DNA from: Dictyostelium discoideum
Lineage: Eukaryota
Length of the DNA stretch: 64,000 bases
NCBI GenBank assembly: GCA_000004695.1
Contig: CM000154.2
Coordinates: forward strand, 2,720,001-2,784,000
Direction of reading: 5' to 3'
Part shown: one piece after another, positions 4,332 through 49,255 of the stretch
How the letters are laid out: every line of letters begins with the position of its first letter
Numbering within the stretch: the stretch's first letter is position 1
The notes under the pieces: model-generated
Told to the model about the DNA's origin: nothing
What the model saw: only the letters and a program-made list of their open reading frames with translations
Database searches by the model: none
Position numbers and translations under genes: made by a program

Positions 4332-7148
4332 ATTTTTTAGTTTGTAAGTTAACTAATTAAAATTTTTTTTTCTTTTTATAAAATAATGATTAGATTCCAT
4401 TAAGAAGATTAATGTATTTATTGTTAAAAGAATTATCAACAATTTCACAAGATGCAATCATTGTTATCAGTTCATTAACAAAAGATATGTCACATAAGAT
4501 TGAATTATATAGAGCAAATGCAATTAGAATTTTATGTAAAATCACTGATGTATGTGTTGTTTATTTTTATTTTTCTACAAGAGATTTGTTTATTAATGGT
4601 GTTTTTGGTTTTTATTTTTTATTTGTTTTTTTTTTAAATTTAATAGAGTTCAATTTTACCACAAATCGAAAGATACTTTAAACAAAGTATTGTTGAAAAA
4701 GATCCACACGTATCATCAGCAGCACTTGTTTCAAGTATTCATTTATTAAAGGTATGTCCAGAGATTGTAAAGAGATGGGCAAATGAAGTTCAAGAAGCAA
4801 TCTCAAATAAATCAAATATGGTTCAATATCATGCATTAGCATTATTACATAGAATTAAACAACATGATCGTTTAGCAGTCTCTAAATTGGTTAGTAATTT
4901 AATTAAAAATTCACTTCGTTCACCATATGCTCAATCATATTTAATTAGATGTTGTGTTGAAGTTATTGAAGAGACAAATACAGAGTAAGTTTCAAAAAAA
5001 AAAAAAAAAAAAAATCAAAAAAAAATCAAAAAAAAAATCAAAAATCAAAAATCAAAAATTCATTACTAATTTAAAATAATTTAAAAATAAATAGAGATAG
5101 AATTTTCCGTGAATATATTGAATCATGTTTAAGAAGTAAGAATGAAATGGTTGCATATGAAGCAGCACGTTCAATTTGTACATTTAAAAATGTTTCAAAT
5201 AAAGAAATTAACTCTGCTGTTGGAGTTTTACAAAACTTTTTAAATTCAACAAAACCAACTTTAAGATTTGCTGCTGTTCGTACATTAAATAAGGTAATTA
5301 TTTTATTTATTTATTTATTATTTTTTTATTTTTTCATTTTTACTAATAAATTAAATCAAAATAATTTTTTTTTTTTTTTAGTTAGCACAAACTAATCCAA
5401 CAGCAGTTATACCATGTAATTTAGATATGGAAAATTTAATTACAGATACAAATAGAAGTATTGCAACATTAGCAATTACAACATTATTAAAAGTTGGTAA
5501 TGAATCAAATGTAGAGAGATTAATTAAACAAATTGCAAACTTTTTAGGTGATATCAATGATGAATTTAAGATTGTTGTAGTTGATGCTATTACATCACTT
5601 AGTCAAAAGTTCCCAAAGAAATACAAACATTTAATTATCTTTTTAAATAAGATTCTTAGAGATGAGGGTACATTACAACTTAAACAAGCAACATTGGATG
5701 CAATTTTAACAGTGGTAAACAATATTCCAGAATCAAAAGAGATTGCATTGACCGAATTATGTGATTACATTGAGGATTGTGATTTCCCTGATCTCTCTGT
5801 ACAAATTCTTCATTTAATCGGTCAAGAGGGTCCATTAACTTCATCACCAGCTCAATACATGAGATACATTTACAATAGAGTTTTATTGGATGGTGGAATC
5901 ATTCGTGCTGCCGCAGTTACATCAATTGCTAAATTTGGTCTTCTCTATGAACCAATGAAAGAAAAGGTTGTCATTCTTCTTCAAAGATGTCTTTTGGATG
6001 AAGATGATGAAGTTCGTGATAGAGCAACACTCTATCTTAAATTATTCAAAGAAAATGATGTTCGTTATCTCAATAAAGTACTCATGGATGATGTACCTGT
6101 ACCATTGAACAATTTACAAAAGAGTTTAGAGCTTTACTTACATCAAGGTGATTTTAGTGAACCATTTGATATCGCCTCTGTTAGTACCGTGGTTGAAACT
6201 TATCAATCACCACTTCTCGGTGATGGTAAATCACCATTCTCAACTGGTGCCTCTAAAAAAGGTGATTCTGTCACTGGTACACCAAAATCAAACAATGCCT
6301 CAAACAACAACAACAACAACGAAGAATCATCAGGCCCAGAATCATTTGCTACTAAACTCTCTCAAATTCCACAATTTTCAACTTTTGGTAAACTTTTGAA
6401 ATCAAGTGAATACATTGAACTCACTGAAACTGAAACTGAATATGTTGTCAATTGTGTTAAACATATCTATCGTGAACATATCGTATTCCAATTCAATTGT
6501 ACCAACACTCTCAATGAACAACAATTATCAAATGTATCTGTTAAAATGGTACCTTCCGATCCAAAATTATTAAAATATGAATGTTCAATCCCAATCGATG
6601 TACTCCCATACGGTGAACCACAACAATGTTATGTTGCCATTCGTTACATTCCTGCCAATGGTTATCCATTATGTTCATTCAGTAATGCCCTCAAATTCAA
6701 AGTTAAAGAAGTCGATCCATCCACTGGTGAACTCGATGAACCAGGCTATGATGATCAATACAGTTTAGAGAGATTGGAAATCGTTCCAAAAGATTTCCTC
6801 AATAGAGCTTTCGTTGGTAACTTTTCCGAGGAATGGAAGAAAATGTCTGAAGATACCCAATTAGTTCAAACCTTTTCTTTAGTTGGTGTTAAATCTATCG
6901 ATGAAGCTGTAAAACAAATCATTAAAACATTAGGTATGGCCCCTGCTGAAAAATCTGAAGTTGTCACTCCAAAATCTGCCAAACATATCCTTTATCTCAC
7001 TGGTAAATCATTAAATAATCAATTGATTTATGTTAGAGCAAGAATGAAGTTGGATCAATCTCAAACTAATACTGATGTAGAATTAACAATTAAATCCGAT
7101 GATGAATCATTAAATGATTTTGTAATTTCTGCTTTCATTGAAAAATAA
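4036..7148 (+). CDS. copG: Coatomer subunit gamma (COPI); join(4036..4272,4394..4549,4647..4984,5095..5293,5382..7148), about 898 aa
   Basis: Track ORFs 4036.., 4412.., 5147.. and 5427..7148 join through GT..AG introns (donors GTAAGG 4273, GTATGT 4550, GTAAGT 4985, GTAATT 5294; acceptors ..TTAG 4393, ..ATAG 4646, ..ATAG 5094, ..TTAG 5381). The spliced protein aligns along its length with COPG of animals and fungi: N-terminus ...[56 protein letters not shown]..., internal ...[42 protein letters not shown]..., and the appendage domain. Confidence 0.9.
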
Positions 7149-7389
7149 ATTTAAATTAAAGTTAATAAAATAAAATAAAAAATAAATAATAAAATGGTAA
7201 ATTAAAAAAAAAAAACCTAAATCTATTTTAATTCTATTTTTAGTTATTTATTTTTTAATCTGCATTTTTCTCAGCTTAATTATTTCTTAAATCTCTAAAA
7301 AATAAAATTATAAAAAACTTAATAAAAATTAAAAAAACCTAAGAATATAATCTATTTTATCCTGTAAAAAAACTTTGTTTTCAACAAAT

Positions 7390-7462
7390 GCCCAGATAGC
7401 TCAGTCGGTAGAGCGCAAGGCTTTTAACCTTGTGGTCGGGGGTTCGAGCCCCCCTTTGGGCG
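7390..7462 (+). tRNA. tRNA-Lys (anticodon UUU)
   Basis: GCCCAGATAGCTCAGTCGGTAGAGCGCAAGGCTTTTAACCTTGTGGTCGGGGGTTCGAGCCCCCCTTTGGGCG folds into a canonical cloverleaf: 7-bp acceptor stem, D-arm with A-box GCTCAGTCGG, anticodon stem CAAGG/CCTTG with loop CTTTTAA, T-arm with B-box GGTTCGAGCC. An identical copy sits at 48640..48712. Confidence 0.9.
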
Positions 7463-7491
7463 AATTTTTTAGATGGAAGAATTTGATCGTA

Positions 7492-7502
7492 GGCTCGATT
7501 CC
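7492..7502 (+). promoter_or_regulatory. ex-B box-like element (GGCTCGATTCC) about 30 bp downstream of tRNA-Lys
   Basis: Matches the B-box consensus GGTTCGANTCC outside the tRNA coding region. Dictyostelium tRNA genes are known to carry an extra external B box shortly downstream. Comparable motifs follow tRNA-Asp (minus strand, 8150..8164, GAAGTTCGGAATT) and the second tRNA-Lys (48739..48753, GAGGGTTCAACTCCC). Confidence 0.35.
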
Positions 7503-7905
7503 TAATCTAACCAATTAATATTATTTAAATTGTTTCTTTTGTGAATGAATCAAAGGAAAACTGTTAAATGTAATAACCATCTTTGGTTTATAATCTACAG
7601 AGAGGAATATTCATTAAAAGGCAATATTCCATTCTTTTGCTCTAGAATTAACATTATCGCACCTTCTAAATATGGTAACTTCTATTATAAAAAATATCAA
7701 AAAATCCATAAATAAATCTATTAATTATTGTTAATTTCCTTAATGGATAAACTCTGATTAATCAATATTAAAAAGGCCTTGGAGTTTATTCCATATTAAA
7801 TTCAATGGTTTACATTTTTTTTGTCCTTCTTTTTATCTTTTATAAAAAAAAAAATCCTGTAGAAGGAGATCCATCTTTATTTTTAATAATTGCTTTTTAG
7901 AATTT

Positions 7906-8084
7906 GTATTACATTGTTTAATATTAATAAGTTTTAATAATCATAATATAAATAATAGTAATAATAATATTAATGATTAACAATTAAACAATAACAATTA
8001 AAAATAATAATTTATTTAGTTTTAGAGTTTTCGTTCAAAACTTATAAGTTGAAAATAACGAAAACTGAAAAAAATGAAAAAAAT
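7906..8084 (+). mobile_element. TRE3-like non-LTR retrotransposon 3'-terminal fragment (copy C)
   Basis: About 180 bp sharing the core ...aacaattaaacaataa(c/t)aattaaaataataatttatttagtttt(t)agagttttcgttc(g/a)aaac...aaaataacgaaaactgaaaaaaatgaaaaaaa with copies at 50383..50536 (+) and 48842..49060 (-). Its A-rich end lies about 104 bp from the 3' end of tRNA-Asp, tail to tail. That is the known integration position of TRE3-class elements. Confidence 0.45.
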
Positions 8085-8187
8085 AATTCACGTTTTACAG
8101 CATTCATAATATTGTGTGTTCATTTATTTATTAAGATCAATACATCTAAAATTCCGAACTTCGGATTGTAGGAAATTATTCAAAAAG

Positions 8188-8259
8188 CTCCCTGTCCGGG
8201 AATTGAACCCGGGCCTTTCGCGTGACAGGCGAAAATCCTCACCACTAGACCAACAAGGA
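8188..8259 (-). tRNA. tRNA-Asp (anticodon GUC)
   Basis: The reverse complement TCCTTGTTGGTCTAGTGGTGAGGATTTTCGCCTGTCACGCGAAAGGCCCGGGTTCAATTCCCGGACAGGGAG gives a cloverleaf: acceptor TCCTTGT/ACAGGGA, anticodon stem TTCGC/GCGAA, loop CTGTCAC, T-loop GGTTCAATTCC. It is convergent with tRNA-Lys. Confidence 0.85.
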
Positions 8260-8299
8260 TATTTTAATTGGAAAAATATTAAATTTTTTTTAATAAAAG

Positions 8300-8567
8300 A
8301 GTAAGAGAAAAAACATCAACAACAACACTTTTTTTATTTGATTATTTCATTTTTCATATAAAAAAAAGACTTAAAAAAAATAAAATAAAATACACTTAGA
8401 ATAAACTACTTTATTTCTTTATTTTATTGTAATTTATTTTTTTCTTTTTTTTGAAAATTTTGCGAAGCAAAATTGAAAAAAAAAGGAAAAAATAATCAGT
8501 AAGAGAAAAAACATCAACAACAACACTTTTTTTATTTGATTATTTCATTTTTCATATAAAAAAAAGA

Positions 8568-8615
<48 letters not shown>

Positions 8616-9985
8616 CCGAAAACATTCTTTCAGGGAATTTCCAGAATTTTAAATTTTTAAAGTCGAATAAAGATTTTAAAGAAAAAAAAGAAATGAATAA
8701 ATTGGCAAATACAATAATGACAGAATCAACAGAAACATTGGCAGATAAAATCAAGAAATCAAATGAACTCAGAACAAAGTTCAAATATTTAAAAAATACG
8801 TACAGAACACTTGATAAAATAAGCGAAGCAATATACCACACTCAAATTGAACTAAAACAATATAAATTCATGATCAATATCCCAGATGAGATTTCCAACA
8901 ACTTAAAAGCAGAATTGGAAATTCATTTACAAGGAGATGATAAGATAATAATAAGTAAGAATAAATTCAAAATCCTAACTGACTGCAGAACTCAAGTAAT
9001 CAAGTACTCTAACGTTTTCAACGGAGTACTAAAAGGAGTTCACAGAGCAATAATAAAACCAAAAAAGATCTTCAAAACATTCAACTGGGAAAAATCAATG
9101 GACATAGTAGAAAAAACATTGCATGAAGAAGGACTGGAAATAATCAAATTAGATAATTTAGGTGAAAACCTGATAATACACTCATTCAACTCAATTATCA
9201 GTCCAGAGCACAAAGACCAGCTAATACATTGTAAACACATAACAATACTATTCCTCACTACAACAGAAGAAACAAAAAATCAAAGAAAAACAAATAAGGA
9301 AATCGAAGACGAAATCTCAGAAAATTCAAAAATCACGGAACTACCAAATCCCGAGATAAAGGAAAACACAAGAATAAACATAAAATCAAAAGAAGAATCC
9401 AACCATAAAAACACTAGCGAATCAAAAAATAACAACAAAAACAAAATAGAAAACAGAAAAGAAAATAATAAAGAAATCAATAATGACAACATCAAAGACA
9501 AGAGCAAAAACGAAAAAGTAAAGGAAAACGAAATTGAAAATAAAAAACCCACAACAATTAGAGCAACTACAACAACCACAACGACAGAAACGACAAACAC
9601 AATAAACAATATTGAAAAGAGAAAAGTACTTCGTGTCCCACCAATAACAGTAACATATAGTGTTGACAGCAAAGAGAAAAGGAAAATGGAGTTAACTGAA
9701 GATGAAGAAGCATTAGAAGTGGTAAGAAAGATGTTCGAAAATGAAGAAGAGAACAGAATTTTTGAAGAAAAAATAAATAACCTGTTGTAGGGAATTTTCC
9801 ATAAAATTTCACTACAGTAGCGTAGTGAATTTTATTATTTAATTTCACTACAGTAGCGTAGTGAAAAAAAAAAATCACTGACCTTAAATTTTTTTTTTTT
9901 TCAAAAAACAAATAAAGTTTATTAAATTGAAATTTTATTTTTTGTTTTAATTATTATTTTATTTATTTTTATTATAATTATTGTT

Positions 9986-10025
<40 letters not shown>

Positions 10026-10066
10026 CAATTTTTTTTTTTAAATTTTTTTCAATTTTTATTTGTTTA
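8300..10066 (+). mobile_element. TRE5-A (DRE)-like tRNA-gene-targeted non-LTR retrotransposon, 5' portion (A-module-like direct repeats plus ORF1), truncated at an assembly gap
   Basis: The element begins 41-48 bp upstream of the 5' end of tRNA-Asp (8259), the diagnostic TRE5-A integration distance. An 81-bp sequence (agtaagagaaaaaacatcaacaacaac...gacttaaaaaaaa) is directly repeated at 8300..8380 and 8498..8580, as expected for A-modules. An ORF1-like CDS follows at 8693..9790. After ORF1 come two copies of the hairpin ttcactacAGTAGCgtagtgaa (9809..9830, 9848..9869), a poly-T tract and then the N-gap. Confidence 0.55.
8693..9790 (+). CDS. Retrotransposon ORF1-like protein (TRE5-A ORF1 candidate), 365 aa
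   Basis: Track ORF. The protein is basic and rich in K/E/N, and it sits inside an element anchored upstream of a tRNA gene. The antisense ORFs at 9040..9911 are low-complexity artefacts. Confidence 0.5.
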   Translation: MNKLANTIMTESTETLADKIKKSNELRTKFKYLKNTYRTLDKISEAIYHTQIELKQYKFMINIPDEISNNLKAELEIHLQGDDKIIISKNKFKILTDCRTQVIKYSNVFNGVLKGVHRAIIKPKKIFKTFNWEKSMDIVEKTLHEEGLEIIKLDNLGENLIIHSFNSIISPEHKDQLIHCKHITILFLTTTEETKNQRKTNKEIEDEISENSKITELPNPEIKENTRINIKSKEESNHKNTSESKNNNKNKIENRKENNKEINNDNIKDKSKNEKVKENEIENKKPTTIRATTTTTTTETTNTINNIEKRKVLRVPPITVTYSVDSKEKRKMELTEDEEALEVVRKMFENEEENRIFEEKINNLL

Positions 10067-10166
10067 NNNNNNNNNNNNNNNNNNNNNNNNNNNNNNNNNN
10101 NNNNNNNNNNNNNNNNNNNNNNNNNNNNNNNNNNNNNNNNNNNNNNNNNNNNNNNNNNNNNNNNNN
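10067..10166. other. Assembly gap (100 N)
   Basis: Literal run of n. Flanking sequences are repeats, so the true size and content are unknown. Confidence 0.99.
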
Positions 10167-10760
10167 ACCTTAAAAATTACCTTTAAAATTACCTTTAAAA
10201 TTACCTTTTTAATGGCTTTAAAAGCGAGGTCCTGAGTTCGAATCCGTTATTTAACGGATAAATTTTTTAAAATTTTTTTTTTAATTTTTCAAAAATTACC
10301 CAAAAGGGATTCGATCCCCCGACCCTCTATCAAAGGGTAGTCTCATCAACCATTACACCATTTGATTGCTTTGATGAAAAATTTAAAAATGATAGAATAT
10401 TTTATCCCCATTTTTTTGTGCTAAAATTAGATCTTTTTTATTAAAAACCTTAAATTTATGTTTAAAGGAAATTTAAATTCACTTTAAATCTACTTTTAAT
10501 CTACTTTAAATCCTATTTAAAATTAATTTAAAATAAATTTTAAAGGTATTTTTAAATATCTTAAAAATTATCTTAAAAATTACCTTAAAAATCACCTTTA
10601 AAATCACCTTTAAAATCACCTTTAAAATTGCTTAAAAATTTATTTTAAAGCAAATTTTAAAGGCATTTTTAAATATCTTAAAAATTACCTTAAAAATTAC
10701 CTTAAAAATGAATTTTTTAAACGCGGCTTTAAATTCAATTTAAATCCAATTTAAATCAAC
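10167..10760. repeat. Minisatellite of 12-bp units (ACCTTTAAAATC / ATCTTAAAAATT variants) with interspersed tRNA-like B-box fragments
   Basis: Directly visible tandem arrays: accttaaaaattacctttaaaattacctttaaaatt at 10167-10200 and atcttaaaaattatcttaaaaattaccttaaaaatcacctttaaaatcacctttaaaatcacc at 10551-10720. Between them lie B-box-like GAGTTCGAATCC (10240-10251) and, on the minus strand, GGATCGAATCCC (10303-10314) next to a perfect anticodon-like stem-loop ACCCT-TTGATAG-AGGGT. No complete cloverleaf can be drawn. Confidence 0.5.
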
Positions 10761-10799
10761 TTTTCTTTAAATTTGCTTTAAAGGTGCATTTTTCTTTGC

Positions 10800-11079
10800 T
10801 GTGAAATAAAATTCAACGATAACACTACAATAATAACAGAGAACCAAATAATTCATAAAATCAAAAAAGCGAGAGATGCCGAATGGGATAGAACAAGAAA
10901 GATAGTAGAAAAACAACTACGTCAAGAACTAAGATGCACTGATAACCGAGAGTCAATCAATCGGACCGCATCAATAAAAAGAAGACTCGAAAAATTCAGC
11001 CACAACTGGAACTCGAAACTCATGACCATAAACATCCCGGAACACTTCATACCATACTGCTCATATAACACCAACTACT

Positions 11080-11113
<34 letters not shown>

Positions 11114-11197
11114 ATAACAATAATAATAATAATAATAATAATATAATAATAATAATATAATAATAATAATAATAATAATAAAAATAAGAATAACAAG

Positions 11198-11241
<44 letters not shown>

Positions 11242-12078
11242 AAACTCTCCTAGAACACACTCAAATTGAGTGATGTTATTAAAAAAAAAAAAAATTTTAA
11301 TAAAATTTCCAATTCAAATAACCTCTAGGCAAATCTTTGAAGCGATCTGGAAAAAAAGAAACAAATTTAAACATGATAACACAACCATACTCATCCACAA
11401 AGAGCAAATAATAAACACACTCAAAAAAACTCAAAAAGCTGCATGGGACAAAACAATATCAAACATTAACAAACTAATCAGAATACGAACCAACAACCAA
11501 GGAGATGAAAAGAAAAAAACACAAACAATCTCAAGAGCACTCCAATATGTCAGCAAACAATGGAACTCCCCACTCAACAAATCAAAATTACCACCACACT
11601 TAAACCAATTGATCACTACCATTAACACACTCTTTGGGTAAAAAATAAATAAATAAATAAATAAGTAAATAAATAAGTAAATAATCAATAATAATAATAA
11701 TAATAATATTAATAACAACAAAATAATAGCAATATAACAACAAAAAAAAAAAATAAAAAATAAAAAAAAAAAAAAAAAAATAATAATAAAAGGAAACTAA
11801 CCCTCTTTCAGAGGCCCTGTAAATATATTACAAATAAAATGAGATCAAGGAGATGCAACTCAGAATTGGGCTATCCCATTCAACAAAACAAAATTAATAA
11901 AATATTTAAAAAGATTAAATTAAAATAACAAACCAAGTTGGAAATGGTCCTTTAATTGTAAAAAAAAAACCTAACAATATTCATTACCACACATCCCACA
12001 CCCAAGAAATAATACTTTACTTTTTAAAATACATAAATAAAATTATTAATTATTGTTTATTTCCTTTAATGGATAAAC

Positions 12079-12132
<54 letters not shown>
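10800..12132 (+). mobile_element. Cluster of retroelement fragments: ORF C-terminus plus poly(A), a 123-aa ORF, and a 3'-UTR-like module ending in a 53-nt poly(A)
   Basis: 10800..11075 is the open tail of an ORF (...RCTDNRESINRTASIKRRLEKFSHNWNSKLMTINIPEHFIPYCSYNTNYS*) followed directly by A35 and (AAT)n. The ORF 11270..11641 is a basic protein with no cellular homologue I recognise. 11801..12079 (aggaaactaaccctctttcagaggccctgtaaa...aataaaatgagatcaaggagatgcaact...ttcctttaatggataaacc) is followed by A53 at 12080..12132. A second copy of this module is at 51395..51750, and a short piece (ataaataaatctattaattattgttaatttccttaatggataaac) is at 7705..7755. Confidence 0.4.
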
Positions 12133-12135
<3 letters not shown>

Positions 12136-12173
12136 AACCAATCTGGATTGGGAAATCAATTTTTATTTTTTTA

Positions 12174-15100
12174 TTAATTACTTTTAATTTGTTTTGGAGT
12201 TATATCAAGACCAATTACATTTTGAATGAAATCTAAAATATGATGTTGTTTATGATAATGACATTCTAAAATTAATTTTTTAAAACTAATTTTTGAGAGG
12301 AAACCTTTTCTAGCGAATAATAAAGATTTCTTATCGAAAATGAATTGATGATTATAAAAAATATGTTGAAAGATATTAATTCTACCATAGATCGAAGCTT
12401 TTGATAGAAGAGAAGAGAAATGACGTTGACATTGTGAGAAACAAGCTCTAGATTCTCTTTCATCTTTATCGAGTAAAGTTAGTAACTCTGATTGTTGTTT
12501 CATTAGGGGTATACAAGATCTGATGTATTTTTCAAGTGCGACGACATCACCATATTTACCAATATCATCCAATACCAACGCCAAACCAACTGGCATAATT
12601 TTCTTTGAACCTTCATTAGTATCATCATAGTAATAACCTTTTCTTAATACGATATCCAATCTACCAGCTCTGTACAACATATGACTTTGAACGGATTGAG
12701 TTATAACACATCTACCACCAATTAATAAATCTTCACTACGATTTTCAAATATCCAATCAAAGAATCTTTTAAGATGAGTTGATTCTTGAAACATTTGTTC
12801 TGGATAATATTTTAATTCTGTACCTTCCAAAATGGTTGAAAAACTTGAAATTATCTCTTGGAAAATTAATTGTCTCTCTATATTTAAATTTAATAATGGT
12901 TCACCCGATGAAGTAGTTGGTGATAGTATTGCAGAGAGTAATAGAATTTCATTGGTTACAATTGTATATAAACCATATGGATCTTCAACTATATAAGCCA
13001 ACATTTTCAAATAGTTATTATAATTCTTTAAAGAAGAACCCCATTCAAATATGAAATGAAAATCATCGAATGAAGCTCTAACTTTTTTATTTGATACAAT
13101 TATACCTTTATCCATATCATCAAGTACCATTAATTGATCATATTTTCTTAATAGTTCAACATTTTGAAAACCATAAAAATCGGCTGTTAAAGAATTTGAT
13201 TGTGGTAAATAAAAATGATCTCTAAAATTTGAAAAACAAAATTCTAACATTTCAATTGATCTAATAAATCTTGGAATTTTTAAATTATAAATTTCACTAT
13301 TACTTTTTGCAATATAACAAAAATTTGAAATTAATGGAAATTCTTTAATAACAATTGATAATAATTCTAAATTATTATTTTCAATTATTAAATAAAATAA
13401 TAATAATCTATCTAAAATTCCACCAATTACTGTACCACCATTACCATTACCATTACCATTACTATTACCATTTTCAATTGATGAATTATAAATTTTTTTT
13501 ATAAATTTTAATTGTTTATTTAAATTATTTGGTGAAACATATTTAAATAAAAGATTTGGAGTGATTTCATTACGATATTTATTTGAAAGGAAAGCATATT
13601 TCATTTCAACTTCTTTATATTCAATCCAATAACCTGGTGAACCATATTTTAAAGATTGTTTAAAACAATTTGAATCAAAAACTCTGGTTACTCTATAATC
13701 GAATAGATCTTCATCATCCAAGTCTTGATCATAACAATTTTCATTACCATAGATTATTTTATACATAAAATTACAATAAACTTTTAGATGTGGATTAAGT
13801 GAAACGTAAAGTTCAGCTAACCTCTTTATACCATCATAATCTTCTTTTTCACCATCTTTTAATAACTGTTTTTGAATAACCTTTTTAACAAAACAATGTT
13901 TTTCTTCTTTTGTAATTTGAGTTTCAATAAATTCAATCTCTGCCATTGTATTGATTGTAAATGATGCTTGAGTAATCTCTTCCTCTTCTTCATTATCACT
14001 ATCTTCATAATGTCTTTTATAATATTGTTGTTGATATTGATTCTTTAAATCAAATGTAACAATTAGTTTACATGAATTTATTAATTGTTTAATTGTAAAT
14101 TGATTAAATACTGTTTTAGTTTTAATTTTTGAATATTCAATTGTATTATTTGATAAATTTGAATTATTATTATTATTGTTATTATTATTATTGTTATTAT
14201 TGTTATTGTTATTATTATTATTATTATTGATATTATTATTATTATTATTATTAATATTATTATTAAAAGTAAAAGAATTTAATAAATTTGAATAATTGAA
14301 AATTTGATTTTTTAAATTTTTATTAAATTGTAAAATATCATTTTCATTATTATCATTAATTAATTTTGCATCGGCAATTACTAAATTTATAATATTTGAA
14401 TAAGTGAATAATCTTAATTGAATTAATAAATTAATGATTTTAATTGATGGATTATTAATTTTTGAAAACATTTCAATATCAAATGGTTTATTATTTGGAT
14501 TTAATGACATTTGACGATGAATGGTTGTTACGATTAATTTCACCATTTTATAAGACCCACTCTTAATAGCCAATTGTAATGAATGATTCATAACTGGTCT
14601 AAATTGGAATTCCGATATCAATAGCTTTGTTGCAACCAAACAATTACATTCAATAGCTAATGAACCAACTAAATAAATATCGATTGGATATCTTTTATTA
14701 ATTCTATCAAATATGAATTCTGAATAATTTGTAAAGAGGTCCCTATAGAATGACTTATCTTGAATGGATCGAATTGAATTGAAAATCTTTTTAAACATTT
14801 TACAAAATTCATATTTTGTATTTTGATCTTCATCATCATTCACATCACCATCATTAATGGTATTATGATTACAAAATACCAATAAATCACCTCTACTAAC
14901 TTTATATTTTAATAATCCGAAATAATTTGAATCTACAATCCAAGATACATGAATGATTTGATCATATTTAAATGTTTTACTAAATATATAATTATAACAA
15001 TAAAAGAATTTATCATCACTTGAGGTCATTGGTGAGGATGATGATGACGTTGTTGTCATGGTACTTTGTTGTTGTTGTTGTTGTTGTTGCTGTTGATCAA

Positions 15101-16382
15101 AGAAACCACCTCTTGATAAATTACCAATAATCTTTCTAAATAATACAATATTTCTAAAAATTCTCCAAAATAATTGTTCTAAATGTTCAATATCTTTAAT
15201 TGGTAAATCATAGATTGTACTATTGTTTACTAATTTTTTTGAATTTGATTTTTGTTGTTGATTCTTTTCACTTTGATATTCTCTATACTTTTGTTTCTTT
15301 TTCTTATGATTTTCAATGAATGATTTAATCCTCTGAAATGTTTCACCCTTTGTATTGTTACCCATTGGGACACCCAAAGTTTTACCAATTTTTCTTAATT
15401 CCACTGCTGTTAATTTCTCTAATTTTCTAATATCAATACCTTTTAAAATATTATCTAAATAAATTTCATCATCTTTATATTCATCATTATGATATTCTTT
15501 TTTTCTTTTTAATCTTCTTAATTCATTAATTCTTTCATTTTCTGTTTGTTGTTGTTGTTGTTCTTGTTGTTGTTGTTGTTCTTGTTGTTGTTTTGGTTTT
15601 AACTGTTGGTGTATTTGTGGTAATAATGGTATTGGTGGTGGTGGTGGTTGTTGTTGTTGTTGTTGTTGTGGTGGTGGTTGTTTAGATTTTTGTTGAATTT
15701 GTTGTAAAGATTGTGAAGAAAGTTGTTGTTGTAATTGTGATTGAGATGATTGCTTTTTTAATTGTGATACATGAATTTGTTGTGAGAATCTATTATTTGG
15801 TGGTACGAAATTTTGATGAGTATTTATTAATTCTTGATAATCATTATGTCTCTCTAATAAATCTAATTGCTCTTGATTTCTTCTTTGTAAAAGTTGTTGT
15901 CTCTCTAAAATTTGTTGTCTTTGAATTTGTTGTTGAATTTCAATTTGAGTTTGATACTCTTCTTTTGAAATCTTTAAATTATTAATATCATTATCATTTT
16001 CATTTGAATTATTATTATTAGGAAGAGGAGAAGGAGTAGAAGAAAGAGAAGGAGTATTTAAATTATTTTGAATAATTAAATTATTTATAATTGGTGGCGA
16101 TACAATTTGTGGTGGTTGTACAGTTGTTGTGGTTGTTGTGGTTGTTGTGGTTGTTGTTGTAGTTTTTGTTGTTGGCAATATTGTTGGAGGTGCTATTGTA
16201 GTTGTTTGTGGTGGTGATGGTGGTGATGGCGGTGATACAATTTGTGGTGGTTGTACAGTTGTTGTTGTTACATTAGATATTGGTTTTGGTTGGAAAATGT
16301 TTTCATTATTTTTTATAAAATTTATTTGTGGTGGTGCCACAGTTGTGGTATGAGGTTTTTTCGAAGCCTCTATATCTTTCAT
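12174..16382 (-). CDS. SAP-domain-containing protein with T/P/Q-rich N-terminal region and large uncharacterised C-terminal region (1402 aa, apparently single exon)
   Basis: Track ORF. It contains a SAP (SAF-A/B, Acinus, PIAS) motif: LEKLTAVELRKIGKTLGVPMGNNTKGETFQRIKSFI. Poly-T, poly-Q and poly-N tracts surround it. I see no other recognisable catalytic domain. Confidence 0.65.
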   Translation of the reverse strand: MKDIEASKKPHTTTVAPPQINFIKNNENIFQPKPISNVTTTTVQPPQIVSPPSPPSPPQTTTIAPPTILPTTKTTTTTTTTTTTTTTVQPPQIVSPPIINNLIIQNNLNTPSLSSTPSPLPNNNNSNENDNDINNLKISKEEYQTQIEIQQQIQRQQILERQQLLQRRNQEQLDLLERHNDYQELINTHQNFVPPNNRFSQQIHVSQLKKQSSQSQLQQQLSSQSLQQIQQKSKQPPPQQQQQQQPPPPPIPLLPQIHQQLKPKQQQEQQQQQEQQQQQTENERINELRRLKRKKEYHNDEYKDDEIYLDNILKGIDIRKLEKLTAVELRKIGKTLGVPMGNNTKGETFQRIKSFIENHKKKKQKYREYQSEKNQQQKSNSKKLVNNSTIYDLPIKDIEHLEQLFWRIFRNIVLFRKIIGNLSRGGFFDQQQQQQQQQQSTMTTTSSSSSPMTSSDDKFFYCYNYIFSKTFKYDQIIHVSWIVDSNYFGLLKYKVSRGDLLVFCNHNTINDGDVNDDEDQNTKYEFCKMFKKIFNSIRSIQDKSFYRDLFTNYSEFIFDRINKRYPIDIYLVGSLAIECNCLVATKLLISEFQFRPVMNHSLQLAIKSGSYKMVKLIVTTIHRQMSLNPNNKPFDIEMFSKINNPSIKIINLLIQLRLFTYSNIINLVIADAKLINDNNENDILQFNKNLKNQIFNYSNLLNSFTFNNNINNNNNNNINNNNNNNNNNNNNNNNNNNNNNSNLSNNTIEYSKIKTKTVFNQFTIKQLINSCKLIVTFDLKNQYQQQYYKRHYEDSDNEEEEEITQASFTINTMAEIEFIETQITKEEKHCFVKKVIQKQLLKDGEKEDYDGIKRLAELYVSLNPHLKVYCNFMYKIIYGNENCYDQDLDDEDLFDYRVTRVFDSNCFKQSLKYGSPGYWIEYKEVEMKYAFLSNKYRNEITPNLLFKYVSPNNLNKQLKFIKKIYNSSIENGNSNGNGNGNGGTVIGGILDRLLLFYLIIENNNLELLSIVIKEFPLISNFCYIAKSNSEIYNLKIPRFIRSIEMLEFCFSNFRDHFYLPQSNSLTADFYGFQNVELLRKYDQLMVLDDMDKGIIVSNKKVRASFDDFHFIFEWGSSLKNYNNYLKMLAYIVEDPYGLYTIVTNEILLLSAILSPTTSSGEPLLNLNIERQLIFQEIISSFSTILEGTELKYYPEQMFQESTHLKRFFDWIFENRSEDLLIGGRCVITQSVQSHMLYRAGRLDIVLRKGYYYDDTNEGSKKIMPVGLALVLDDIGKYGDVVALEKYIRSCIPLMKQQSELLTLLDKDERESRACFSQCQRHFSSLLSKASIYGRINIFQHIFYNHQFIFDKKSLLFARKGFLSKISFKKLILECHYHKQHHILDFIQNVIGLDITPKQIKSN

Positions 16383-16532
16383 TTTCGTTCGATAAAATTA
16401 AAAAAAAAAAAAATAAAAAAAATAAAAATAAAAATAAAACATTTGCAGAAAAAAAAAAAAAAAAATTCAAAAAAAAATAAAAATAAAAAAAAAAAAAATT
16501 ATTAGTTTTTCTTTATAGATCTTGGTGATTTT

Positions 16533-16563
<31 letters not shown>

Positions 16564-17233
16564 CAATGAAAAAAAAAATAAAAAATTTAAAAAAAATTAA
16601 GATCTTTGATGAGTTAATCATAAATCAATCTTAAAAAAAAAAAAAAAAAAAATATTATTTTCAAATAAAATTAAAATCGAATTAATTTAATTAATAATAA
16701 TTAATAATAAATAAAAAAAAAAATAAAAAAAATTAACTTTTATAAACTTAAAAAAATTATAAAATAAAAAAATAAAAAAAAAGATTTTATTTGAATTAAT
16801 TATTTAAATACATATTTAATACATGTTGTTATTTAAATCATTTTTTTAAGTTTTTTTTTTATATTTTTATTTTTTTTTTTTATTTAAATAATTAAAAATA
16901 TTTCAAACCAAGCTCGCACACACACCAATCATCCACATAAATATATAAAAAAAATAAGAATATCACCACATTTTTTTAATTCTCCATATAAGTACAAAAA
17001 ACTAGTTATGTTTTACACATAAAATCTTCAATTTAAAATTTTATTTTATTTTTTATTTTTTTTTATTTTTTTTATATTTTTTTAATATTAAACTCCCTTT
17101 AAAAAAAAAAAAAAAAACTATTATTTAAAAATAAAATCAAATTAATACATAGAAAATAAAAAATCAAATAATAACATTACAAAAAAAATAAAAAAAATAA
17201 AAAAATTAAGTAAATTATAATTATCGATCTTTG

Positions 17234-27774: not shown

Positions 27775-27996
27775 GGGTTTGGGAGAGGTAGCACTCTTTT
27801 TATAAACTCTGAAATTGTGCAATACAGAGCGAATGCTATTTTAGATGTAATAAAGGCATGCCGATATCATAACATCTAAACCTCGAATAAAAAATTATTT
27901 TAAATTCGAATGCTTTCACTTAGAAAGCAAGAACGATTTTAAACGTTCTAGAACAGATACTACACTTGATTAAAGCTATTACGCTTCAAGAAGAAT
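27775..27996 (-). ncRNA. U2 spliceosomal snRNA gene, divergent in stem I (about 220 nt)
   Basis: The minus-strand transcript AUUCUUCUUGAAGCGUAAUAGCUUUA-AUCAAGUGUAGUAUCUGUUCU-AGAACGUUUAAAAUCGUUCU... contains a 21/21 match to the universally conserved U2 branch-point-interaction region GAUCAAGUGUAGUAUCUGUUCU. A perfect stem-loop IIa equivalent (AGAACG-UUUAAAA-UCGUUCU) follows, then an Sm-like AAUUUUUUA and a 3' end ...CUCUCCCAAACCC. The block is a GC-richer island in the 740-bp gap between convergent genes. A DUSE-like TCCCAAAA lies about 85 nt upstream (plus-strand 28081..28088) and a TATAAAGG about 50 nt upstream. Confidence 0.6.
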
Positions 27997-36689: not shown

Positions 36690-39600
36690 GCCAAAAAATA
36701 ATCCCACATTCTCTTCATTATCAATTTCATCAACATTGTTGGATTTATATCAAGGAAATGTTGATAAACAAAATAAACCAGTTTTCTTTGAAAAGATAAC
36801 ATTGTTGTCAATGATTACAAGTTTAAAAAATAAACAAGTTATCGATATTGAATCATTTTCAAAAGTATTATTAGAAAATAATAATTTAGAAATTGGTAAA
36901 TCAATTGAAAATATATTATTTTTAAATAAAATAATTTCAACTTGTTCACTAGTTAATTGTTCAACTAATACATCATCCTCTTCAAGATCAATAAAAGCAA
37001 TTTTAAATCCATCAACATTTAACAATACAATTTCACAATGTATTTATTATGATAAAACTAGAAATCAATATTATGATTTAACTCCATTAATGTTGTATGT
37101 ATTTATATATTTTTAAAATAGTATCAATAATAATAGGAATATTGAATAATATAATATTAATATTTTTATTATTAAATTATATATTATATTATTCAATATT
37201 ATTAGACCATCAAATCAATTTTATAATGTAACTAAAGCATCAGTTACAGGAGGTGCAGTTTTTTTTAATTTTTGTACGAAAATTACAAAATGTGATTCAA
37301 TTGCATCAACAACCAAACAATCAGTGGCTTGTCAATCAACCATTGAACTAGCTTCTCTTAATCTTGCACATACTACAACTTTTCCAACCACTGATGGTTT
37401 AACACTTGCATATACAGCACCTGCTACAGGTACTTGCTCACCTTCAAGAAAATTGTCATATGTTTTCGTATGTAATCTTGCTCAAGAAATGTTAGCTGAT
37501 GTCACTGTAACTGCCAATGCATGTACTTTTACTCTTACCATTCAAACAAAATATGCATGCAAGAATCAAGCAGTCTTTTATTTAAATGGAGATCTTTATG
37601 ATTTAAGACCATTACAATTGTAAGTTTACACCCCTTTTTTTTTATGATCATAATAAATTATTAATAAAATCTTTATATTATTAGAACATATCCAAAACAA
37701 TTTCAAGTTAGATTAACACCATGGAATTATCCAGCAGGAGTAATTAGATATGTTTATTTCAATATTTTTGCAAAATCTAAAATGTGTGAAAATACAACAA
37801 CTGGATCAAATCATGCATGCTATATCGATAGTACAAATAGTGGAGTGATTGTTCCAATGAAGGAGCCAGTCTATACAATTGAAACTCAAGATTTAATTAA
37901 AATTCAATATTTTAGTACAGCCCCTTATTTTCCAAGTTGCCCAAATCCTGTATTGGAAATTAATATCAAATGTAATCCAACAGTTGATTATCAATTCCCA
38001 AGTTCAGTTTCTTATGAAGATATGTGTAGTTATCCAATTCTTATTATTGAATCAAGATATGCATGTCCAACAATGCGTTTCTTAAATGGTAAACAATTTT
38101 ATAGTTTAGAATCCTTACAAAAACAATCAACTAATCCATATCAAGTAGCATTTGGATCCAATTATAAATTACTTTTTAATTTTGGTGGTATTGTTGATAC
38201 ATGTGTACAAGCTATGCCAGCAACAAATCCAACAAAAAGAATTCAAGCTTGTCAAATTCATAATACCAATCAAACTGATGTTCGTATAATTGGTGTTGTT
38301 AATTTAGGTCCATTCGTTAAATTCTCTTACAATTCAATGACATTAGAGTATTTTACAGAAACATTAACAAGTGAATGTCCAACCAATGGCAATCGTAGAT
38401 CTATTAGATTAGTATTAACCTGTAATCCAACCACAGATTATTTAGTAACTAGTGTAGTCGAAAGTCCATTATGTGTCTTCCAAGTAAATATAGGCTCAAA
38501 GTATGCTTGTGATTCATTGATATTTTTCAATGGGTATAGTTTTACAGATTTAACACCATTGAAATCCCTCCAAAGATACACTGATATCAGTGGTGGTAAC
38601 ACTCTTACTCGTTTATATTATTCAATTGGTGAAGCTCATCCAAGTTGTTATACACATGCAACTGCCAATTCATCATTAATTTATCAATCATGTACTTTTC
38701 CAAACTCAACAGTTTCACAAATTGGTGGATTAAAGAATAGTTCTTATTCATTTATAAATGGTGGTAAGAGTTTACAAATTACCTATTCATCAGATGTTAG
38801 TAGTAAAGTTAAATGTGGCGTTTCCTCAACCCAAACTTTTAATGCCCTTACATTTCAATGTGATCCAGTAAATGAATTTGTTCAATCCCTATATACTATT
38901 CCAAGTGTTTGCTATTATGAGGTTAAAATTAATTCATCATATGCATGTTCATTTCCAAAACTTGAAGATTCACCCAAAGCTATAACATCAATCTCTCAAC
39001 CAAACGGTTTTGCCGGTGATCAGTTAACCATCAATGGTGTAGCGCTCCATCAAACAGATAAGGTTATTTTCTCTACACTATTATTTGATGGATCAGTTCA
39101 TAATGAAGTTGCAACAATTATTTCAAAAACATCAAATCAAATCATAGTTCAAATACCATATGGTTATAGAGATTCTGTAATTTATCTCATATCTGCACTT
39201 GGAGTAAAAAGTAATAGTGTTCCATTTTATTTTTCTCCAAATGTTGATCTTTTAATTCCAGAATTTGAAATAAATAAAATAAATAAAATTTATTTAATTG
39301 GTAATGGTTTAGGTTCATTATTTTCAGCAGTACCAAGTTATTGGGTAAATGTATATGCCACAAGAAATTTCACAGGAAGATTCAAGAGTGAATTAACTTG
39401 TGTTTTTGATAGATATTGTTCTACAGGTGGATCCCAATTTCAACCTATACCTTTACCAAATGGTCAACCAGGTATAACATGTATTGAAAGTGAATATTAT
39501 TTAAATAATACCTCTCTTAGATCAAATTTAACAGATGTAGTGGTTTGTCTTGAAATTCCTTATAATATTGGTACTGGTACGATTGATGCTATTGTTTTCG

Positions 39601-47924: not shown

Positions 47925-48639
47925 TTTTTCTTAAAATGCCAAACCAATCTAACAATTTATAATTAAATAAATCTATTGATAGAAATTTTTTTTATTAATT
48001 ATCTAAAATATTGGTAGATTTATGTCCCAATTAAGTCTACAGCAAAAATTTATTTCTTTGTTAATTATTTTTATTTTCAAAATTCTTTTTATTGGATATT
48101 AACAAATTATTTTACAATCCAAGTATATTTTTTTTTTTTTTTTTTTTTTTTGTATTGATTAATTACAGTTTTTCAAGAAAAGGAAAATAATAAATAATTA
48201 TAATTTTTTTTTTTTTTTAAATATTAATTTATTATATGCTGAATCTTTAAGCAATAATAGTTTTTTTTTTAGTTTATATTTTGTTTTAAAATTTATATTT
48301 ATATGAATTGAATCAACAATTACTCTATTTGGTAGTATTGTGCTTGATAAACAATAATCTTTTATAATTTGGTTTTTAATATTTTTAATTTTTTTGATGT
48401 ATTCGATTTTTTAACAAATTGGGAGGGTATCTTTTGATGATGCTAATTTATAATTTTTAACTTTATTTATATAATCCAAGGTCGCTGATTCATACCATTT
48501 TTAAGAATTATATCATTGTATAATGTTTTGGCTTGGATTTGGTTGTCGTTGTGGAGTTTGTCCTAGGTGTGCAAGTCAATCTATTTACCACTAATTTTTG
48601 CATATCTATATGTGTATTATAATTTACAATTTTAAAAAT

Positions 48640-48712
48640 GCCCAGATAGCTCAGTCGGTAGAGCGCAAGGCTTTTAACCTTGTGGTCGGGGGTTCGAGCC
48701 CCCCTTTGGGCG
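48640..48712 (+). tRNA. tRNA-Lys (anticodon UUU), second identical copy
   Basis: Same 73-nt sequence as 7390..7462. An ex-B-like GAGGGTTCAACTCCC lies 27 bp downstream. Confidence 0.9.
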
Positions 48713-48841
48713 AAATTTTTAAATTAATATCGTTGATCGAGGGTTCAACTCCCAGTTTAATGTAATGCCAATATTGATCATAATAAATAAAGGAACACAC
48801 AATTAATATTATATGAATGCTGTAAAGCGTGAATCAAAACT

Positions 48842-49060: not shown

Positions 49061-49170
49061 ATATCCCCCTTCTTGACAAGATCGGGAAAAATGAAATGAG
49101 AATATTAATTGTGGATGATTAATTATTATATCAATTGGCTTATATTAAATTTTGATTGATTTTTTTTTTT

Positions 49171-49255
49171 TTTTTTTTTAATTTGATTTGATTTGATTTG
49201 ATTTGATTTGATTTGATTTGATTTGATTTGATTTGATTTGATTTGATTTTTTTTT
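49171..49255. repeat. (ATTTG)17 microsatellite preceded by T20
   Basis: Direct read: atttgatttgatttg... x17. Confidence 0.95.

Follow-up and report, generated by a model that had tools for sequence, protein, structure and literature searches.

The 64-kb window (the whole stretch of DNA analysed here, from chromosome 5 of D. discoideum AX4) holds an ordinary D. discoideum tRNA-gene transposon cluster, of a kind already documented, several details of which were misread in the first-pass annotation. Taken as a whole, the locus is very probably best explained by a stack of TRE5 elements upstream of a tRNA-Asp gene, together with older layers and a spacer of mixed content. The view of the region as a tRNA-gene-centred cluster of position-specific retroelements is supported; and the convergent tRNA-Lys(UUU)/tRNA-Asp(GUC) pair, the assembly gap at 10067-10166, the 12-bp arrays and the ORF/poly(A) pieces that had been listed all exist.

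The retroelements upstream of tRNA-Asp(GUC) lie head to tail, every one directed away from the tRNA gene and each having entered by target-primed reverse transcription: the youngest, which we term X, nearest the gene; then a second element, Y; and beyond Y an older 3' end with A(53). Targeting may follow the scheme published for TRE5-A, by which the ORF1 protein recognises TFIIIB/TFIIIC assembled on the B box of the tRNA gene; recognition that would lead to integration about 50 bp upstream and in a fixed orientation. The spacer between the convergent genes contains a short TRE3-lineage 3' end, oriented like tRNA-Lys, plus an unclassified 238-bp repeat past the ex-B box of tRNA-Asp. The tRNA genes and their boxes are located as follows:

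7389-7463, + strand: tRNA-Lys(UUU), 'Lys1' (ARAGORN; Rfam tRNA, 72.6 bits)
7486-7501, + strand: ex-B box of Lys1, ATCGTAGGCTCGATTC, 2 mismatches to GTCNNNNGTTCRANYC, at +23 to +38 after the tRNA
8151-8166, - strand: weak ex-B-like box of tRNA-Asp, aatccgaagttcggaatt, at +21 to +36
8187-8259, - strand: tRNA-Asp(GUC), target of the TRE5 stack (ARAGORN; Rfam, 61 bits)
48639-48713, + strand: second tRNA-Lys, 'Lys2' (ARAGORN; Rfam)
48736-48751: ex-B box of Lys2, 1 mismatch to GTCNNNNGTTCRANYC, at the same offset as for Lys1 (+23 to +38)

The suggestion that each tRNA is followed by an ex-B-like box holds for Lys1 and Lys2 (1-2 mismatches) and, with regard to position, for tRNA-Asp; the box of the latter fits the 16-nt consensus poorly and is absent from the sites found at ≤2 mismatches.

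Element X and its insertions

The features of X, a single TRE5-type non-LTR retrotransposon, are given below, those lacking a strand being unoriented.

8288-8298: target-site duplication of X, 5' copy, 11 bp, TTTTAATAAAA
8300-11294, + strand: element X (matches to full-length copies, ortholog, target-site duplication)
8300-8588, + strand: 5' UTR of X, one A-module-like unit (198 bp) and part of a second (91 bp)
8693-9782, + strand: ORF1 of X, codons 1-363 of 454 (AX4 DDB_G0289387, partial)
9783-10066: 284 bp that neither belong to X nor occur at the orthologous locus; either an AX4-specific insertion or the end of a chimeric contig
10067-10166: assembly gap, 100 N
10167-10803: non-coding foldback element of 760 bp (right 637 bp present), in ORF2 of X (terminal inverted repeats)
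10804-11294, + strand: 3' end of X, comprising the last 92 codons of ORF2, an A/ATA-rich 3' UTR, a short terminal hairpin sequence and poly(A)
11295-11305: target-site duplication of X, 3' copy, 11 bp, TTTTAATAAAA

The first base of X (8300) lies 40 nt from the 5' end of tRNA-Asp, the two being head to head; a TRE5-type element had thus been rightly placed here at canonical distance and orientation. Full-length copies at three other loci (L002-L004) correspond, at 92-99.5% identity, to positions 8300-9782 in their 5' part and to 10804-11296 in their 3' part, and at the orthologous locus of a second assembly (L005) X is full length, about 5.46 kb; alignment of L005 with window positions 5385-9782 and 10167-17000 runs at 99.7-99.9%, with the complete element in between. 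Target-site duplications, which the first-pass annotation had suggested looking for, were found at both X (11 bp) and Y (10 bp); the 11-mer of X occurs five times in 64 kb, two of these at the two X junctions. The matches to full-length copies, the duplication at both junctions and the L005 ortholog show X to be one insertion. On the strength of the duplication and the ortholog, 10804-11294 belongs to X: what had been described as a 'further ORF-plus-poly(A) fragment' is really the element's own 3' end, and ORF-plus-poly(A) pieces number two, not one.

In the second assembly, the full-length element bears A-like repeats and two reading frames, a 454-aa ORF1 and ORF2 (about 1,144 aa), the latter encoding APE and reverse-transcriptase domains, a non-LTR architecture reflected in profile matches (RVT_1, E = 5e-37; Exo_endo_phos profile covered whole). 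In the window, the direct repeats of the 5' UTR (8300-8390 and 8498-8588) are 91 bp long, rather than the 81 bp first given, 97.8% identical, and amount to 1.46 copies of the 198-bp unit, of which other copies of the element have up to about 5.5 in tandem. The reading frame of ORF1 spans 8693-9790 (365 aa); its part within X (8693-9782) is 100% identical to proteins P0001 and P0011, and ORF1 equals AX4 protein DDB_G0289387. In five copies of the element, each at a different tRNA gene, the start lies 40-53 nt from the gene's 5' end, the arrangement being head to head throughout, and those in L003, L004 and L002 have matching junction sequences that resemble target-site duplications. This position and orientation agree with the 34-82 bp listed for TRE5-B (PMC5006619 Table 1) and with the published arrangement in which the element's 5' end faces that of the tRNA (PMC5391098).

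The interior of X is lost in this assembly, its middle being replaced by 284 foreign bp and the N gap; where the window has 9783-10166, the sister assembly has 3,624 bp (3,501 bp of X and 123 bp of the foldback element). That the 284 bp are a real AX4-specific insertion in ORF1, for example the end of an LTR element, and not an assembly chimera, seems to us rather improbable. The break at 9782/9783 is sharp, the new sequence starts TGTTG like an LTR end, and the adjoining gap is of unknown content; but the segment is missing from an orthologous locus that is elsewhere 99.7-99.9% identical, has no second occurrence in the approximately 230 kb fetched, and the AX4 gene, annotated as 'partial', ends 2 nt past the break. 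Copies of X are, moreover, about 99% identical to each other, inviting mis-joining of reads.

The foldback element, complete in L005 (15557-16316), has terminal inverted repeats CACAGCAAAGAAAAA..CACCTTTAAA and a 2-bp duplication, AA, relative to intact X; its DNA folds at -131 versus -72 kcal/mol (z = -13). Within it lie:

10167-10208 and 10472-10709: 12-bp arrays
10229-10244, + strand: perfect B-box motif
10308-10323, - strand: B-box motif with 1 mismatch, convergent with the preceding motif

The minisatellite and tRNA-like pieces noted previously are not separate items, being parts of one inserted DNA element with terminal inverted repeats. Two B-box motifs are indeed present (the 64-kb window has six, against 1.03 expected by chance); the 'tRNA-like fragments' said to bear them give no tRNA call with ARAGORN at default settings or Rfam at E ≤ 10, a degenerate cloverleaf near 10308-10323 appearing at relaxed ARAGORN thresholds only.

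Family assignment and the layers beyond X

X is most likely TRE5-B; an assignment made by elimination and from published structural descriptions, not by consensus match. It had been annotated as TRE5-A, the diagnostic sequences of which (primer sites, Ile-10 of ORF1, C-module, 3' B-module; PMC4559204, PMC3159450) are all missing; X is not a member of that family. The published TRE5-A primers Rep-108/109/75/176 have no match in X, whereas Rep-108 matches TRE5-A derivatives in L003; residue 10 of ORF1 is Thr in X, while TRE5-A has Ile-10 (PMC3159450), as seen in the L003 TRE5-A ORF1, which begins MKITNNTTNI; and the published C-module positions (T15/C26/A35/C38) are satisfied by window positions 51441-51511, not by the 3' end of X. 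The N-termini of the two ORF1 proteins are 39% identical over 56 aa. The lack of both a 3' B-module and a C-module in X is as published for TRE5-B (PMC3159450), one intact full-length copy of which is listed for AX4 (PMC5006619). At least four AX4 genes encode a complete 454-aa ORF1, as against that single intact TRE5-B; integrity of ORF1 is not, however, integrity of the element.

Two further layers follow X:

11307-11893, + strand: element Y, 5'-truncated and of TRE5 lineage (ORF2 C-terminus, A/T-rich stretch, C-module-like tail)
11970-12132, + strand: oldest layer, a second M2-type 3' end (see below), then A(53) (TRF, alignment)

The ORF2 of Y stops at 11641, its end being 61% identical to D. 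citrinum P0018 and 35% identical to X; the C-module-like tail (11790-11884) is 74-78% identical to TRE5-A C-modules. Y is flanked by its own 10-bp target-site duplication, TTAATAAAAT (11297-11306 and 11894-11903), and the target site overlaps that of X, so that the same few nucleotides were hit twice. By elimination and from published structural descriptions, rather than by consensus match, we infer that Y is TRE5-C-like; it could alternatively be an old relative of TRE5-A. In the oldest layer, 12026-12078 is 90.6% identical to 7701-7752 in the inter-tRNA spacer.

The inter-tRNA spacer

The spacer, described initially as 725 bp made up 'entirely' of retroelement debris, measures 723 bp, about 46% of which matches any repeat; the matching parts are these two alone:

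7683-7774, + strand: M2, a TRE3-lineage 3'-terminal module with degenerate A tail, in tRNA-Lys1 orientation
7905-8142, no strand: M1, an unclassified repeat with defined ends, TGTA...GATCAATA

Aligned with five further copies, M2 shows 75-91% identity, and A-rich runs come after most of these; in L002, L003 and L004, other copies are found on the distal side of TRE3-type elements. Not predicted by the simple model are two TRE3-lineage M2-type 3' ends at TRE5-like positions: one stops 48 bp upstream of tRNA-Lys2; the other, in pre-insertion coordinates, is some 106 bp upstream of tRNA-Asp.

M1 corresponds to the roughly 200-bp module already reported in three copies, which we find at 7905-8142, 48772-49062 and 50382-50546 (7905-8142 and 49056-48772 being 78% identical). 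It had been taken for a TRE3 3' end, two copies ending 104 and ~135 bp from their tRNAs, tail to tail, a reading that is not supported. Those distances were measured to an internal A-rich stretch; in the alignment, homology reaches +45 for Asp and +59 for Lys2, counted from the 3' end of each tRNA. Neither end of M1 carries poly(A); the repeat lacks a target-site duplication, matches none of the TRE3/TRE5 references, and is dissimilar to three TRE3-type references; the tail-to-tail orientation, in turn, goes against the published rule that TRE3 elements lie in tRNA orientation (PMC5911963) and against all five reference loci, where the TRE3-type element does so. The scheme of TRE5-A upstream, TRE3 3' modules tail to tail at 104/~135 bp and a separate ORF-plus-poly(A) fragment is very improbable, and largely refuted already. 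It draws on the TRE5 position of X, a 5' UTR (8305-8697) sharing 77% identity with a TRE5-A derivative of L003 in the latter's 5' A/B region, and the location of M1, with its A-rich stretch, inside the published TRE3 window of 40-150 bp (PMC5911963). Set against this are the missing TRE5-A diagnostics, the inclusion of 10804-11294 in X, the dissimilarity and orientation just described, and M1 homology that runs 60 nt beyond the A-rich stretch, at which none of the copies ends.

A tentative, if possible, reading is that M1 is a tRNA-targeted remnant of another class, either a solo LTR (Skipper-2/DGLT-type) or the 5' UTR of an unsampled TRE3 family, sitting just past ex-B in tRNA orientation. 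Both tRNA-adjacent copies are oriented identically relative to their tRNA and start 8-20 nt beyond the ex-B box, the repeat has discrete shared ends (TG first, CA last), and insertion on the downstream side of tRNA genes is documented for two families, Skipper-2 and TRE3 (PMC5006619). There is, though, no visible target-site duplication; lengths of 238 bp to 291 bp differ from the published Skipper-2 LTR (208 bp), as does the distance (8-23 bp for Skipper-2); and with two tRNA-adjacent copies, their position and orientation could be coincidence. The third copy, 98% identical to that at Lys2 over 166 bp but inverted, is unlike an LTR arrangement and speaks instead for M1 as the long terminal inverted repeat of a DNA transposon or foldback element, with 48772-49062 and 50382-50546 around a roughly 1.3-kb non-coding body, the Asp copy a solo end and its proximity to the tRNA incidental. 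We regard this as unlikely: whilst the lack of poly(A) and an internal 11-bp perfect hairpin (GAGTTTTCGTT...AACGAAAACTC) would fit, the right arm is missing its outer 60 bp, no transposase-like ORF lies between the arms, and two of the three copies adjoin ex-B boxes, both facing the same way relative to them.

Comparison with known elements

X resembles TRE5-B in its position (some 40-50 bp upstream of tRNA genes, 5' end toward that of the tRNA), in having two ORFs, the second of which encodes APE and RT domains, in being related to TRE5-A yet distinct (C-module and 3' B-module both missing), and in size, full-length copies measuring about 5.5-6.3 kb according to how many 198-bp 5' repeats they have, for a published consensus of 5,971 bp (PMC5006619). 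The window copy differs in its missing interior (gap) and in the 760-bp DNA-element insertion in ORF2. With the experimentally studied TRE5-A (DRE), X shares target position, orientation, poly(A) and target-site duplication, as well as its 5' architecture (an A-module-like unit of some 200 bp with a partial repeat, and an A-run ahead of ORF1; 5' UTR 77% identical), but lacks primer matches and any C-module or duplicated B-module, has Thr-10, and ends in a different ORF2 C-terminus. Y is like TRE5-C in consisting of an ORF2 3' end, A-rich stretch and C-module-like tail with no intervening B-module, upstream of a tRNA (PMC3159450), although its best protein match is the D. citrinum element (61%).

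M2 behaves as expected of TRE3 (TRE3-A to TRE3-D) at 7683-7774, downstream of tRNA-Lys1 and in tRNA orientation, and its terminal module is common to the copies distal to TRE3-type elements at three other loci; two M2 copies depart from this in lying upstream of tRNA genes, while M1 has no TRE3 hallmark other than position. Finally, the 760-bp insertion recalls the MITE-like/foldback DNA transposons (thug, DDT, Tdd) in its 15+10-bp terminal inverted repeats, subterminal 11-12-bp arrays, non-coding character, strong foldback structure and 2-bp duplication, and stands apart from them in being seen as a single copy and in having a pair of convergent B-box motifs as well as a degenerate tRNA-like core.

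The tRNA genes and element X

ARAGORN and Rfam concur on three tRNA genes in the window:

7389-7463, + strand, tRNA-Lys(UUU)
8187-8259, - strand, tRNA-Asp(GUC)
48639-48713, + strand, a second tRNA-Lys

The tRNA-Lys(UUU) gene at 7389-7463 and the tRNA-Asp(GUC) gene form a convergent pair with a 723-bp spacer. An ex-B-like box had been placed after each tRNA gene in the first-pass annotation, and both tRNA-Lys genes do carry such a motif at +23 to +38, with two mismatches to the published 16-nt consensus at tRNA-Lys(UUU) and one at the second gene; the tRNA-Asp motif, at +21 to +36, is weaker. Because motifs with two mismatches are common in the window (29 against 20.8 expected), the box of tRNA-Lys(UUU) is supported mainly by its position, which equals the offset seen at the second tRNA-Lys. 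Elsewhere, we see a U2 spliceosomal snRNA gene at 27784-27996 (- strand; Rfam 92.5 bits, model matched full-length) and a single 3,380-aa ORF at 37782-47924 (+ strand), encoding a large Ser/Thr/Asn-rich repetitive protein and ending ~700 bp before the second tRNA-Lys.

A TRE5-type element upstream of tRNA-Asp had been recognised from the start, and element X (8300-11294) indeed begins 40 nt from that gene in the orientation of TRE5. The AX4 protein DDB_G0289387, annotated as ‘partial’, is identical to the product of its ORF at 8693-9790, which places the window on chromosome 5 of D. discoideum AX4; an exact protein look-up of the truncated 365-aa ORF1 returned no record. We compared X with copies at four loci of assembly GCA_054883475.1, found via contigs encoding the full 454-aa ORF1, whose 5' parts are 98.5-99.5% identical to window 8300-9782. 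The element opens with a 198-bp unit (8300-8497), the first 91 bp of which recur at 8498-8588, with up to ~5.5 tandem copies in other copies of X. The full-length copy at locus L003 encodes an ORF1 of 454 aa and an intact ORF2 of ~1,144 aa, the latter matching both RVT_1 (E = 5e-37) and Exo_endo_phos (E = 0.0018, full Pfam profile spanned), and thereby confirms a two-ORF non-LTR architecture with APE and RT; the poly(A) of X itself lies at 11281-11294. Pfam searches with ORF1 and both ORF2 C-terminal fragments gave no domain match. At five independent loci, each with a different tRNA gene, the 5' end of X lies 40, 42, 47, 50 and ~48-53 nt from the tRNA, and in all five it faces the tRNA 5' end with the tRNA on the opposite strand; X is thus integrated ~50 bp upstream of tRNA genes, as TRE5 elements are.

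The limits of the insertion are set by an 11-mer, TTTTAATAAAA, that occurs five times in the 64 kb and lies both directly before X (8288-8298) and directly past its poly(A) (11295-11305), providing the target-site duplication that the first-pass annotation had proposed to look for. The second assembly's orthologous locus (L005), located through a flanking 1,402-aa gene, is 99.86% identical to window 5385-9782 and 99.66% identical to window 10167-17000, and holds 3,624 bp in place of 284 unrelated bp and 100 N; this stretch comprises 3,501 bp absent from the window's X together with 123 bp from the start of a 760-bp insertion in its ORF2. Because the duplication is present at both junctions and the full element in L005, 10804-11294 belongs to the same element as 8300-9782; what had been taken for a further ORF-plus-poly(A) fragment is actually the 3' end of X. 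An alternative duplication, ‘ttaaattttttttt’, considered for a short element at 8300-9872, lies off the junctions, the real pair being 8288 with 11295.

At the assembly level, the gap at 10067-10166 conceals ~3.6 kb, and the 284 bp that precede it (9783-10066) are probably misplaced. This segment opens with TGTTGTAGGG, continues with two copies of ATTTCACTACAGTAGCGTAGTGAA and is then T-rich; it is absent from L005 and has no match in any fetched sequence, nor does the 9783 motif match the metagenome and viral contig collections. An insertion specific to AX4 is the less likely reading; the likelier one is a contig end wrongly joined in the AX4 reference, because copies of X are ~99% identical and the AX4 gene is ‘partial’, ending 2 nt past the 9782/9783 break. 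We also asked whether 9783-9875 might be a deletion derivative's B-module-like 3' end, and dropped this, as its local alignments with X, the TRE5-A B- and C-modules and the tail of the neighbouring element Y are no better than those of shuffled sequence.

Family of X, and a second insertion at the same target

Three TRE5 families have been described in AX4, among them TRE5-B, without C-module and without 3' B-module, and TRE5-C, of which only a short, C-module-bearing 3' sequence is known (PMC3159450, PMC5006619). For TRE5-A, the published descriptions include qPCR primers for ORF1/ORF2 (Rep-108, Rep-109, Rep-75 and Rep-176; PMC4559204), a 3'-terminal C-module of 134-137 bp with T15, C26, A35 and C38 (numbered from its 3' terminus), and an ORF1 Ile-10, mutated as I10* (PMC3159450). 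Our family call uses such printed sequence facts, not consensus sequences.

On all of these points X departs from TRE5-A, the family to which it had been likened: primer sites, Ile-10, C-module and duplicated B-module are all absent. With up to four mismatches allowed, none of the four primers finds a site in X, whether that of the window or those of L001-L005. In L003, three short elements distinct from X are hit by Rep-108; their ORF1 starts MKITNNTTNI, with Ile-10 as in TRE5-A, and the ORF1 of X starts MNKLANTIMT, with Thr-10. No register of the X 3' end fits T15/C26/A35/C38. Window 51441-51511 fits them directly, and the terminal module of the L003 TRE5-A-type elements does so at all four positions if extended by one terminal C, a base present in the window copy. 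The 5' UTR/ORF1-start sequence of X does not recur in its 3' UTR, as that of the TRE5-A copy at L003 18949 does. In its own right, 51283-51520 (+ strand) is a genuine TRE5-A 3' end, consisting of a B-module end, an A-run and a C-module with T15/C26/A35/C38, next to which no tRNA gene is detectable.

X and TRE5-A are nonetheless relatives, with 77% identity in the 5' UTR and 39% over 56 aa of the ORF1 N-terminus (first 74 aa of TRE5-A ORF1 compared); the figure to be expected of TRE5-B is an ORF1 ~25% identical to that of TRE5-A. X resembles TRE5-B in its TRE5 position, its kinship with TRE5-A and its lack of both C-module and 3' B-module. Because TRE5-A is excluded and TRE5-C carries a C-module, X is most likely TRE5-B, an assignment reached by elimination from published descriptions and not by direct match.

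Element Y, a 5'-truncated element of the TRE5 lineage (11307-11893), begins immediately past the 3' duplication of X. The C-terminus of its ORF2 shares 61% identity with a D. citrinum element and 35% with X; the stop codon ends at 11641 and is followed by ~150 bp of A/T-rich sequence and a tail (11790-11884) that is 74-78% identical to TRE5-A C-modules. TRE5-C is published as an ORF2 end with no B-module and a C-like module ~78% identical to that of TRE5-A (PMC3159450). Y shares the ORF2 end, the lack of a 3' B-module, the C-module-like tail and the location upstream of a tRNA gene, and by this match to the description would be TRE5-C-like.

Y is flanked by its own duplication, TTAATAAAAT, at 11297-11306 and 11894-11903. 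Nine bases are common to the targets of Y and X; the two insertions therefore hit virtually the same nucleotides, 30-40 nt upstream of the tRNA gene. The same behaviour is seen upstream of tRNA-Asn in L003 (8801-15890), a site likewise used twice, where TTAATAGTTG occurs three times and brackets the full-length TRE5-B-like copy of X as well as the TRE5-A ‘A-B-C’ deletion derivative next to it. With two TRE5 insertions in overlapping 10-11-bp targets at one tRNA gene, 30-40 nt upstream, the locus is a clean textbook case.

Repeat M1 and the M2 modules

Two kinds of recognisable repeat, M1 (238 bp, 7905-8142) and the M2 module at 7683-7774, together make up ~46% of the spacer between the convergent tRNA genes, which had been described as ‘entirely’ retroelement debris; only the M2 module is demonstrably a piece of retroelement.

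The three copies of M1, reported as a 200-bp TRE3-like 3' module, do exist. The published range for TRE3 elements is 40-150 bp from the tRNA gene, on its downstream side (PMC5911963). In our alignment, the copies at tRNA-Asp and the second tRNA-Lys are homologous up to 45 and 59 nt, respectively, from the tRNA 3' ends, 8-20 nt beyond the ex-B boxes, and these proximal ends fall within the TRE3 range; the ends proposed at 104 and 135 bp correspond to an A-rich stretch inside the repeat, and no copy terminates there. Poly(A) is lacking at both ends of every M1 copy, nor do the copies show a target-site duplication. TRE3-type elements lie downstream of the tRNA gene and in tRNA orientation at five of five reference loci, which is also the rule stated in review (PMC5911963), so that the tail-to-tail arrangement proposed for M1 would run opposite to it. 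M1 does not match X, Y or TRE5-A, nor does it give any match other than low-complexity ones with three TRE3-type references (L008 1485-6830, L008 7900-12300 and L003 3260-8690, from loci L003, L004 and L006-L008), among which TRE3-D is not represented; its core has no match in the metagenome and viral contig collections.

A TRE3 3' end is thus not supported. A solo LTR would require a 3-5-bp target-site duplication, and none accompanies any choice of TG...CA boundary; as the 5' end of a TRE3 type, M1 shows no similarity to those in L003, L004 and L008. It is possible that M1 is a remnant of another tRNA-targeted element, and also possible that it is a DNA transposon's long inverted end; M1 is left unclassified.

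Relative to the copy at the second tRNA-Lys (48772-49062), the third copy (50382-50546) is inverted; it matches the core of that copy with 98% identity over 166 bp. The ~1.3 kb between this pair (49063-50381) lacks a long ORF and contains (TTTGA)14 at 49177-49249 and two ~140-bp direct repeats near 49430 and 49570.

M2 is a 3'-terminal module common to six copies, most of them followed by an A-rich run, and at 7683-7774 it is oriented as tRNA-Lys(UUU). It lies distal to TRE3-type elements in L002, L003 and L004, where, as at tRNA-Lys(UUU), it is downstream and in tRNA orientation. Two further copies, 48128-48590 and 11970-12132, are placed on the upstream side of tRNA genes. The former (- strand) has its truncated 5' end 48 nt upstream of the second tRNA-Lys and points away from it, a TRE5-like placement; its ORF2 end weakly resembles that of a TRE3-type element (29% over 65 aa). 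The latter (+ strand) is an M2-type end likewise upstream of tRNA-Asp, and forms the outermost layer of the cluster there: 11970-12079 followed by A(53) is another 3' end, the last 53 bp of which are 90.6% identical to 7701-7752. The two share a terminal module (...ttaattattgtttatttcctttaatggataaac...), and their lineage is apparently TRE3. M2 was also considered as the 3' end of a TRE3-type element ‘Z’ in L002, a candidate set aside since 99%-identical copies of Z in L006-L008 stop before M2.

The foldback element and comparison with known systems

Targeting of tRNA genes by TRE5 and TRE3 is knowledge dating from the 1990s, and a catalogue of the AX4 transposable elements already exists. The general idea of a tRNA-centred landing pad for position-specific retrotransposons, textbook Dictyostelium biology, is borne out; the family assignments, the TRE3 module with its distances and the ‘entirely debris’ spacer find no support—a caution that family names given by eye and ‘published distances’ can mislead even where the general idea holds. 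The locus holds nothing beyond known kinds of element, and little in it is new; the sole candidate for something that might be undescribed is the 760-bp B-box-bearing foldback element within ORF2 of X.

The window holds the right 637 bp of this element (10167-10803), the complete copy being L005 15557-16316. It has terminal inverted repeats of 15+10 bp (CACAGCAAAGAAAAA, then CACCTTTAAA), duplicated AA on insertion into a site that is uninterrupted in other copies of X, folds at -131 kcal/mol against -72 for shuffles (z = -13) and has no coding capacity. The minisatellite and tRNA-like fragments noted earlier are real as to the 12-bp arrays and the B boxes, all of which sit within this one insertion. 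A perfect B-box motif at 10229-10244 converges with a one-mismatch motif on the opposite strand (10308-10323); the 64 kb holds six such motifs at up to one mismatch (1.03 expected), the other four being accounted for by the three tRNA genes plus one ex-B box. Only at relaxed thresholds does ARAGORN report a degenerate cloverleaf in the element, and Rfam, at E<=10, gives no tRNA match in the tRNA-like region.

It is conceivable, though we think it improbable, that this is an undescribed tRNA-derived DNA element with a pol III promoter, and that the M2 placements reflect targeting by distance from a B box and not by side or orientation of the tRNA. Were that so, the element could plant TFIIIC sites, and hence new TRE landing pads, at each point of insertion. 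No second copy is present in the window and eight loci (~230 kb), a departure from the multiple dispersed copies of a MITE or foldback transposon; in its terminal inverted repeats, short duplication, non-coding sequence and precise fit to the empty site, the element resembles MITE/foldback DNA transposons.
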